From sequence record PQ850616.1: 38,040 bases of DNA; one strand, 5' to 3'. Positions 14,635 through 16,757 of the stretch are shown piece after piece. Source of the stretch: Escherichia phage Louie. The notes below the pieces were generated by a model. It was not told the origin of the DNA. It saw nothing but the letters and a program-made list of their open reading frames with translations, and searched no databases. The stretch's first letter is position 1; the number at the start of each line of letters is the position of its first letter. A program made the position numbers and the translations under genes.

Positions 14635-14858
14635 CTTTATCTAATGTTGCTGCTCTATATCAAACTTTAACGCAATGCTGCGCAACTTAAGTGACTGTCA
14701 GGTTGATAACAGACACTCTTTTTTGCATGATTCCTTTAGACCATCACAATTGATGAAGAATCATGAAAAGAAGAACTCTTCTAAAGTCTTTGCTCGGCCT
14801 GACGTCACTCTTACCAGTTAAGTTTGCAGCATCTCAAAACCTGCAAGGTAAAAGTATA

Positions 14859-16757
14859 ATGTCAGACATTACACCCAATGTTGTAGTGAGTATGCCTTCG
14901 CAACTCTTCACTATGGCTCGTTCTTTTAAAGCCGTAGCTAATGGAAAGATTTATATCGGGAAAATTGACGCTGACCCGGTAAACACTGAAAACCAGATTC
15001 AGGTTTATGTAGAGAACGAAGATGGTTCTCACGTTCCTGTTTCGCAACCAATCATCATTAACGCTGCTGGATATCCGGTATATAACGGACAGATTGCTAA
15101 ATTCGTTACCGTGCAAGGCCATTCTATGGCTGTTTATGATGCCTATGGTGCTCAGCAATTCTATTTCCCAAACGTGCTGAAGTATGACCCGGACCAGGCA
15201 TTGCCAGCATTTAAGGCTGATTTGACTGGTCCTGATGGTGCTGACCTTGTTGGTTATGGAGATTCCACTGTCGAGGCAGAGTTAGACATCCTGACTACAT
15301 CTAATGGGTGGTACGTAACTCCTGATCAGTTCGGCGCGAAGGGTGATGGCACTACCGATGACACAGCGGCGATTAGTGCGGCAATTGCTGAGTGTGCTTC
15401 TACAGGGAAAACATTGCTCCTGCTTAATAAACGCTATGTGTGGAATGGGCCAACCATATCCACCGATAAAATATCCGTTATGGGCGTCCGTCGCCCAAGC
15501 CCTGACGCGACGCTATCCAAGCTGGAAAACGGCAGCATCATTGTCGGTACCATGATATTTTCCGGAACTCGTGTTCAGGTGCAAAACTTTGGTGTAGACC
15601 ACGGTTCAGCCACATTCACTTCTGGTGGTGATGCGCTAGTGCTTTCCGCAACTGAAAAGAATGGGCTGTTTGGTATCATCCGGAACTGTGTAGGTCTTGG
15701 AAGAAACTCATCTGACGCTTACCATGCAATTCTCTGTGAGGGTTACAAATACTCAACGGTGAGAGATATCATTGGCTGCCAGAACTTATATGGCTATGCA
15801 CAGAAATGTAATTATTCCGTATCAAGCGGTGTTGTAGTAAAAAACAACCAAAACGGAATAATCATCAAATCAGACAGTGTATTTGGCGATGGAAGCCAAT
15901 CAATTCTTAGTGATGTTGTTATTGATGGTAATGGATTAACATCTATTGGCGTCTGGGTTTTCTCGCTGGATGCACAACTTCAAAAAGTAAACATAAGTAA
16001 CGTGACCTCGTCTGGTTGCTCTTATGATATCGTAGTGCAGGCTGCTGAGAACGTCATTAATGAAATTAATATTAATAACGTAGCTGCGAGTTCATCACGC
16101 ATTGCATCAATCTGCCTGGCTGGAACTGCAGTTGATAAAATTTACACAGCCAATATCAGCAATGTTGCTATAGGTGAAGCAGCGGGAATGCTAATAGATG
16201 CCCAGACATGTAACTTCCTTAACCTGACAAACGTAACTGGACGAATAACAAACGAATCAACGCATGCTAACGACTCAATAAACATTGGAGCATTAGTAGG
16301 AAGCTCTAACATCAGCAACGTGTTCCCTACCATCAACTACAGTCAGGATGTACTTGCTGGCATTACCTATCTTAATAACTATAAAAACAACACGCTTACC
16401 AATTATAAGGCGAACGTGTTTGGTGTTGGGGCTCCGAAACCAGGTTACGACACGCAAAACATTGATACCAATGTCGGAAGCGTGTACCTGAGGAGCAGTG
16501 CAACTAACTCTTCATTCCTGAGGTTAACGCCACTTAGTAACTCATCCATTACGACGCTTAACATCACCACTCAAGCAGGTGGAGTGATAAGCCCGGGTTA
16601 CACATGGTGGTTACAAAACGCATCACCATCATTCACGCTGTCTATAGTTCCATCATCAGGAGGTCACATCGTCACTTCAGGCAACTCTACCAAGGTGCTT
16701 AGCGGTGGAGACAAGATAGGATTCATGTTCGACGGAGCGACATGGATTCAGATTTGA
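14859..16757 (+). CDS. Tailspike protein (P22 gp9-like N-terminal head-binding domain, divergent receptor-binding domain)
   Basis: From ATG 14859 (AAGGT RBS): [13 protein letters not shown]…[19 protein letters not shown]…[11 protein letters not shown]… matches recalled P22 tailspike residues 1-110; remainder differs (beta-helix-like N/S/T-rich repeats). In-frame upstream extension to 14763 noted in findings. Confidence 0.88.

Follow-up and report, generated by a model that had tools for sequence, protein, structure and literature searches.

The tailspike gene of Escherichia phage Louie (sequence record PQ850616.1, whose full 38,040 nucleotides are called the window below) is open beyond its canonical start, as a 32-codon in-frame extension runs from an ATG at position 14763 up to the virion start at 14859. 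Judging from related phages and prophages, this extension is conserved and modular, invariably in frame, and motif-bearing, with selection acting on the protein. The leader that it encodes looks like a twin-arginine export signal, which would make the longer protein a substrate of the twin-arginine translocation (Tat) system. With moderate confidence, we propose that a low-abundance long isoform of the tailspike is initiated at 14763, exported by Tat, cut after AAS, and used to trim nascent O-antigen in the periplasm, mainly in lysogens.

In what follows, we describe the distribution of the leader and the selection on it, and afterward turn to the two starts of the gene, the Tat character of the leader, and its probable origin. 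Alternative explanations are weighed along the way. Finally, we discuss the proposed mechanism and its meaning, and compare the gene with known systems.

Distribution and conservation of the leader

Three classes of leader can be told apart (A, B, and C), the one in Louie being of class A. This class A leader is identical in the phages Bas106, Dewey, Huey, and APC_JM3.2, as well as in four Escherichia coli prophages with different flanks. From 14655 on, the spacer in front of it has the identical sequence in APC_JM3.2 and in four E. coli prophages whose upstream genes and, in one case, whose tailspike are different. A Salmonella Kentucky prophage differs from Louie at 8 of the 96 leader nucleotides, seven of these differences being synonymous and one changing the last codon (I32T). 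A degenerate search of IMG/VR for an 11-residue leader segment returned tailspike leaders in 12 of 12 matches; diverged class A versions in that database include ...GLSSLLPIKFSAAQNM... and ...TSLIPFKVAAAQNL..., and an exhaustive protein search added one further variant. All class A variants show conservative changes only.

Class B (MNRRSFFKSIASFVALTPLSSLSNKSNRIAH, beginning with MNRRSFFK) and class C ((M/V)NRRLFFKTIASLSAVIPFSSISKSSNRMTN, beginning with M/V-NRRLFFK and including variants such as MDRRLFFKTL) are collinear with class A (31 vs 32 codons). Their identity to class A is about 25% over the leader residues, as counted from the alignment, and about 44% over 49 aligned residues, 17 of which are conserved tailspike residues. 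A scan targeted at classes B and C gave 20 matches, namely 16 tailspike leaders and four short random open reading frames (ORFs). With a general pattern, 12 of 13 matches in metagenomes were tailspike leaders, several of them on contigs of 80-560 kb (integrated prophages). Of 142 GenBank phage records in which the tailspike has a P22-type N-terminus, five include a leader (four of class A, and JEP4 of class C), and the 5,426 complete E. coli genomes hold about 66 in all (4 class A, 18 class B, and 44 class C).

The frequency of the leader was estimated from unbiased samples of loci with a P22-type head-binding domain (80, then about 110 further ones). An in-frame leader starting M-[KN]-R-R was present at 4 of 77 and 4 of 107 loci, i.e., about 4-5%. 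Most sampled loci have a stop or meaningless open sequence upstream of the tailspike. Relatives that lack a homologous spacer, P22 included, have unrelated sequence at that place, and an apparent tblastn extension upstream of P22 gene 9 turned out to be spurious, with stop codons present.

All 25 unique leader copies begin with a start codon (always ATG or GTG) and stay open up to the tailspike methionine, with which they are in frame. Invariant across the three classes are M1, R3, R4, K8, P18, and the internal methionine (M33). The variable sites are distributed over codon positions 1, 2, and 3 as 9/1/12 in class A and 8/5/18 in classes B and C, and the pooled counts of 17/6/30 give a chi-square of 16.3 (p about 3e-4, computed by hand). 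In the reading frame of the leader, the ratio of nonsynonymous to synonymous variation (pN/pS) amounts to 0.21 in class A and 0.41 in classes B and C. For the other two frames, it is 1.04 and 10.9 in class A and 3.7 and 0.94 in classes B and C, and every copy has stops in both of them. The 35 unique complete leader-bearing tailspikes fall into 14 clusters of receptor-binding domains, one of which has both A and B leaders. Being intact, selected, and present on 14 receptor-binding clusters, the leader thus behaves as a maintained module that is independent of glycan specificity, rather than as a recent accident.

A preliminary description of this DNA, made from its letters alone, had pointed out the open frame of 96 nt and its peptide, both of which we find as given there, and had considered an alternative isoform as one explanation. 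Homologous spacers in relatives hold no stop codons in the leader frame, a check that the same description had proposed. Together with the purifying selection on an extension that is always open and in frame, in three classes and on many tailspikes, this lends comparative support to the isoform.

The classes also resemble one another at the nucleotide level. For the twin arginines, every class uses rare codons (AGA AGA or AGA AGG), and over its first 12 nt (ATGAAWAGAAGA) the leader is near-identical among the otherwise diverged classes. Common descent, or an effect on initiation, could lie behind both features.

The tailspike gene and its two starts

Louie is a temperate Lederbergvirus (P22-like) of 38,040 bp, and its spacer and tailspike start are the same as in Bas106, Dewey, and Huey. 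The O16 O-antigen is the receptor needed by Louie and Bas106, and their relatives Dewey and Huey depend on it likewise (PMC12243541, PMC11990801). The tailspike gene occupies the part of the phage late region between the gp16-like DNA-transfer gene, which stops at 14634, and the integrase gene, which comes almost immediately after it on the opposite strand. Its product has the architecture of a P22-like tailspike, with a head-binding domain (Pfam Head_binding, PF09008; residues 33-145 of the long form, E = 8.6e-66) followed by a pectate-lyase-like domain. As residue 1 of the solved P22 and Sf6 tailspike chains aligns to M33 of the long form, 14859 is the virion start by homology.

Both in-frame start codons are kept in all copies, the downstream one with a Shine-Dalgarno (SD) sequence and the upstream one with a weak SD or none. 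In Louie, the ribosome-binding site (RBS) at 14859 is indeed the better of the two, as the preliminary description had stated (Table 1). The linker that contains this SD is nearly invariant in class A, and at the corresponding position of classes B and C, AGGA is found within Asn-Arg codons. Annotations differ accordingly in their choice of start: the long one is annotated in Bas106 (by Pharokka) and, for class C, in JEP4, and the short one in APC_JM3.2 and by NCBI PGAP. The tailspike coding sequence of the Bas106 record (L001, PQ850599) also bears the note 'colonic acid degradation activity', at odds with the published strict dependence of this phage on the O16 O-antigen.

Table 1. Features of the Louie tailspike gene and of the spacer in front of it (positions in the window)
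Feature	Position	Strand	Remarks
Left part of conserved spacer (…ATATCAAACTTTAACGCAATGCTGCGCAAC…)	14655..14689	+	Identical (100%) in APC_JM3.2 and in E. coli prophages whose upstream genes differ
Sigma-70-like promoter candidate	14703..14731	+	TTGATA 14703-14708, 17 nt, CATGAT 14726-14731
Long-isoform ORF	14763..16757	+	664 aa, open from ATG to end
Upstream start codon ATG (putative long isoform)	14763..14765	+	Weak SD only (GAAGA)
Predicted signal peptide, 24 codons	14763..14834	+	n-region MKRR, h-region of 11 residues, c-region KFAAS
Twin-arginine codons AGA AGA (R3 R4), within K-R-R-T-L-L-K	14769..14774	+	
Linker QNLQGKSI, predicted cleavage site to virion start	14835..14858	+	Contains short-form SD AAGGT 14845-14849
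Canonical (virion) start and P22-type head-binding domain	14859..15197	+	Second Met 14859-14861, then MSDITPNVV
Receptor-binding enzymatic beta-helix part of tailspike	15198..16757	+	Pect-lyase_RHGA_epim at Pfam threshold

Elsewhere in the window lie three HNH_3 endonuclease genes, at 5058-5585 (-), 22694-23161 (-), and 32852-33361 (+), the third with a NUMOD4 motif. One HNH_3 gene sits on the opposite strand inside the head-gene block.

Twin-arginine character of the leader

The consensus of Tat signals is S/T-R-R-x-F-L-K. All three leader classes carry a matching motif, namely KRRTLLK in class A, NRRSFFK in class B, and N/D-RRLFFK in class C. Their peak hydrophobicity over 10 residues (Kyte-Doolittle scale) is 1.70-2.33, with 1.97 for Louie. 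Compared with reference signals, this lies in the range of Tat signals (1.40-2.32) and below most signals of the Sec pathway (mean 2.59). The h-regions are rich in Ser, Thr, Gly, and Ala, and the uncharged stretch covers 15 residues in classes B and C. The c-region of class A has small residues at -3 and -1 together with a basic residue (K20). Signal peptidase is predicted to cut between AAS and QN in class A, and in its variants between SAA or AAA and Q, so that the -3 and -1 positions stay small throughout. In a search of the PDB with a leader profile, the best non-tailspike matches were twin-arginine signal peptides, including the Tat signal of CueO, at scores that are not significant.

Three features of the leader weigh against its being a Tat signal. 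The uncharged stretch of class A has only 11 residues, as against 15-24 in the reference Tat signals and a usual minimum of about 13, and classes B and C have SxS, not AxA, before the predicted cut. Furthermore, searches of Pfam and NCBIfam (E up to 10) gave no family for any of the leaders. The Tat-signal models of these libraries are PF10518 (TAT_signal) and TIGR01409. As such models are short and weak, and the filters of HMMER drop weak matches, the missing match is weak negative evidence. Thus, the Tat-like peptide of the preliminary description stands as far as motif and hydrophobicity are concerned, and falls short in the curated hidden Markov models (HMMs) and in the short class A h-region.

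The same three features would suit a leader that is translated as an export signal but uses the Sec pathway, or that remains uncleaved as a membrane anchor, placing the tailspike at or across the inner membrane. A KRR n-region, a hydrophobic core, and small -3/-1 residues are indeed also compatible with a signal for Sec and signal peptidase I. We consider this rather unlikely, since all three divergent classes share the hallmark of Tat, an unchanging RR with a pair of hydrophobic residues and K8 after it, and since the hydrophobicity is lower than in typical Sec signals. Moreover, the P22 tailspike, a trimeric beta-helix, folds and trimerizes in the cytoplasm, and the only known analogue of the exported form, WceF of Pantoea stewartii, is described as a Tat substrate.

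Candidate promoter and origin of the leader

The spacer upstream of the leader contains a sigma-70-like promoter candidate with a predicted transcript start near 14738. Its hexamers are invariant among class A variants, in which the flanking bases vary. Classes B and C have TTGATT or TTGATC, 17 nt, and TAATGC or TAAAAT, and the distance from the -35 element to the upstream start codon is 57-60 nt in all classes. This conserved promoter-like element suggests that the leader may have a promoter of its own. An intrinsic terminator (a hairpin and T-run at about 14690-14725) was considered as well and rejected, given a z-score of 0.16 against shuffled sequences, a negative scan, and loss of the stem in loci L005 and L009.

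The left part of the spacer has a different status. A block related to it also occurs in the Salmonella locus L256, which has no Tat leader, so that the block probably belongs to a neighboring element and not to the leader module. In most relatives it adjoins a hydrophobic minus-strand ORF of 23 amino acids, MDR(N/D)LLNFAFL(I/M)FG(I/L)VVGKLLFA, which is placed after the gp16-like gene and before the leader and has a perfect AGGAGG SD. This ORF is found at about 5815-5890 (-) in L004, with equivalents in L003, L005-L009, L011, and L012, and is absent from the Louie window. As its copies differ conservatively, it looks like a real gene for a small membrane peptide.

Leader and spacer are AT-rich (37-40% GC, vs 47.7% for the window), and the class C loci L087, L159, and L260-L262 may tell something about the arrival of the leader. 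About 330 nt upstream of the tailspike ATG, these loci retain the beginning of an older P22-type tailspike gene (its SD and four codons, MTDI), which is followed by an AT-rich piece with the promoter-like element and the leader. With the 5' end of the older tailspike kept upstream, the promoter-plus-leader piece looks like an inserted cassette.

Some of these loci have further neighbors. In E. coli A30 (L003, NZ_CP092500, 1-2800), the region directly upstream of the leader-bearing tailspike is occupied by ISEc22 (IS66-family), a fragment of a HicB antitoxin, and a pseudogene of a tailspike N-terminus, and this prophage remnant adjoins ybhB. The class C E. coli prophages L260-L262 have a divergent gene for an Arc/Mnt-family repressor (2510-2761, -) at about 420 nt upstream from the tailspike; the arc-ant genes that come after this repressor gene in P22 are missing here.

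Could the cassette be a neutral relic, a promoter and signal peptide taken from a WceF-like bacterial gene or another phage, recombined at the head-binding domain and hitch-hiking ever since, so that only the short form matters? The AT-richness, the class C scar, and the A30 pseudogene would agree with that, as would the poor upstream SD and the absence of the leader from most P22-like phages. We nevertheless think it unlikely. A relic would hardly show the low pN/pS values and third-position bias in substitutions described above, nor 25 intact copies out of 25. The start codon is kept even though ATG and GTG exchange, the motif residues are invariant at about 25% leader identity, and the leader sits on 14 receptor-binding types.

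Nor was a donor gene found. In the 5,426 complete E. coli genomes, leader DNA occurs only in P22-like prophages, with no host donor. Among 185,579 species-representative genomes, the class A motif matched only unrelated proteins of non-enterobacterial taxa, and the general pattern of leader plus head-binding domain had no match. A fossil of recombination with a host exported protein, the other option of the preliminary description, is thereby disfavored and the alternative isoform favored: no enterobacterial donor gene was found, nor any decayed copy.

Predicted folding around the virion start

A purely regulatory role has also been weighed, in which translation of the upstream frame would unfold a hairpin and open the canonical RBS, the peptide itself being irrelevant. 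In all three classes, predicted folds pair the canonical SD and AUG with the codons of the h-region and the proline, with one compensatory pair in class A along with several changes that preserve wobble pairing. Synonymously recoded controls, on the other hand, occlude the SD equally, the covariation term of alifold is unfavorable (+1.2), and the fold z-scores of -1.7 to -0.3 are not significant. With recoded leaders folding equally well and covariation absent, a selected RBS-masking hairpin is not supported. Moreover, divergent classes would not all retain small -3/-1 residues, a hydrophobic core, and RR-x-hydrophobic-hydrophobic-K if the frame served regulation only, which makes this explanation quite improbable.

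For Louie by itself, the Tat-like motif does not go beyond chance. With a loose filter for Tat signals (RR.[FGAVML][LITMVF] close to a start codon and at least 11 uncharged residues), the window had six matches, compared with 3.1 on average for random Markov sequences, and the significance of the motif rests on the comparison with relatives. A chance open frame with a start mis-annotated by some gene callers, for which one could cite the roughly three loose matches expected per window and the meaningless open stretches at other tailspike loci (such as YHFGMQSHHGCIISFVWSNE), is contradicted by all of the comparative evidence (conservation, selection, intact copies, and modularity) and highly improbable.

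Proposed mechanism and its weighing

On the export reading that we prefer, the start at 14859 with its good SD would yield the cytoplasmic virion tailspike, and the start at 14763 would add a 24-residue twin-arginine-type signal peptide and an 8-residue linker. The long form would fold and trimerize in the cytoplasm, possibly mixed with short subunits, before being exported to the periplasm by the host Tat system and cut by signal peptidase after AAS. There, it could act as an endoglycosidase that trims nascent O16 O-antigen, much as Pantoea WceF trims stewartan. Less receptor would then be present on newly made lipopolysaccharide (LPS), and the resulting role might be receptor destruction, lysogenic conversion, or superinfection exclusion. 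As for expression, a low level from the sigma-70-type promoter of the leader in lysogens seems most plausible, complemented by late transcripts. That translation begins at 14763, that export depends on Tat, that the leader is cleaved, that its promoter is active, and what the long form does are all inferred.

A role in conversion would fit the gene content of the phage. The window has no ORF of at least 120 aa with four or more predicted transmembrane segments, so Louie seems to be without an O-antigen conversion gene of the gtr or oac type. Within 1.5 kb downstream of the tailspike, a multi-transmembrane ORF was found at 0 of 17 leader-bearing and 28 of 72 leaderless loci (p = 0.001; uncorrected for kinship, and with a proxy that includes a host yfdC-like gene).

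Critically speaking, several points weigh against this reading in addition to the three features of the leader discussed above. The leader is found on only a small share of P22-like tailspikes, and its rarity means that it is dispensable for this phage type. A good SD is lacking at the upstream start in every class, and a single sigma-70-like match in the spacer is within chance expectation (consensus scan). A trimer of roughly 200 kDa would be a large cargo for Tat, although WceF is one. The apparent deficit of conversion genes near leader-bearing tailspikes is confounded by host flanking genes and shared ancestry, and the leader-bearing locus L015 does have an acyltransferase-3 gene downstream.

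A wider generalization can be offered only tentatively, and we regard it as possible but doubtful. It would hold that, in a subset of P22-like temperate phages, dual initiation yields both a cytoplasmic virion tailspike and a Tat-exported periplasmic trimmer of O-antigen or capsule. This would amount to a new, enzyme-based form of lysogenic conversion or receptor destruction, carried by a mobile promoter-plus-signal-peptide cassette that fits any tailspike and is a likely source of WceF-like enzymes.

Biological significance

P22-like tailspikes are textbook virion proteins, and the literature that we found does not report export signals on them: full-text searches for tailspikes with a twin-arginine motif, a Tat signal, or a signal peptide gave no report of such a leader on phage tailspikes. 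Nor do the papers on Louie and Bas106 mention it (PMC12243541, PMC11990801). Production and export of the long form would mean that temperate phages can remodel the surface glycans of their lysogens with their own infection enzyme, unnoticed so far. Superinfection exclusion, serotype, LPS length, serum resistance, and host range in phage therapy would all be affected, and the source of bacterial Tat-exported, tailspike-shaped trimmers such as WceF would be explained.

On the practical side, recombinant constructs or structure predictions that start from the long form would include the signal peptide, and annotation pipelines disagree on the start. The published phages Louie, Dewey, Huey, and Bas106, with E. 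coli K-12 wbbL(+) as their host, make the system directly testable.

Comparison with known systems

As a signal, the leader is closest to those Tat signals of E. coli that have very short n-regions, with M-x-RR-x-hydrophobic-hydrophobic-K at the extreme N-terminus. Known examples are CueO (MQRRDFLK...), FdnG (...SRRQFFK...), and SufI (...PLKASA). It shares with signals of this type a moderately hydrophobic h-region rich in Ser, Thr, Gly, and Ala, a proline near the end of the h-region, and small -3/-1 residues, and with SufI a basic residue in the c-region (K20 in the leader). It differs in the shorter uncharged stretch of class A, in the lack of a curated-HMM match, and in its cargo, a phage structural protein.

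As a gene with two starts, the tailspike would resemble phage genes in which two conserved in-frame starts give two proteins that behave differently. Dual in-frame starts of lambda S give the S107/S105 pair of holin and antiholin. Likewise, mycobacteriophage Ms6 makes two isoforms of LysA from in-frame starts (PMC6116005). In these cases, however, the isoforms differ by a few residues or a domain and act in lysis, whereas the Louie long form would differ in compartment and the gene encodes a receptor-binding protein.

With respect to the lysogen, the proposed outcome is that known from P22 gtrABC, Sf6 oac, and phage BTP1, where a P22-like prophage alters the O-antigen and thereby blocks re-adsorption. 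P22 gtrABC and Sf6 oac achieve conversion by glucosylation or acetylation with membrane enzymes, and the Louie window has no obvious gene of this kind. Closer still is BTP1, since in BTP1 lysogens without gtrC the prophage tailspike shortens the O-antigen of the lysogen itself (PMC4413052), although that effect has not been attributed to an exported isoform.

The nearest counterpart is WceF of Pantoea stewartii, an enzyme that cleaves stewartan and in which a Tat signal of 28 aa precedes a P22-like head domain (residues 34-146) and a trimeric beta-helix (PMC7949094). A knockout makes longer stewartan, and a phage origin of the enzyme was speculated on by its authors (PMC7949094). WceF (PDB 6TGF) is similar to the Louie tailspike with E = 6.4e-10; it was not among the matches of the leader profile in the PDB, and a plasmid collection contained neither a WceF-like protein nor a new leader class. 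Both proteins have a twin-arginine signal (28 vs 24 aa, that of WceF being compared by description), a head-binding domain (34-146 vs 33-145), and a trimeric right-handed beta-helix with glycanase function, and the job proposed for both is the trimming of a Wzy-type polysaccharide. On the other hand, wceF belongs to an exopolysaccharide cluster on the chromosome and its product has no virion role, whereas here the signal is found on a working phage tailspike with its own internal start and can be swapped among 14 receptor-binding types. As a phage late gene that keeps its virion start and SD, the Louie tailspike thus would be WceF-like in its working rather than a member of the WceF/AmsF family.

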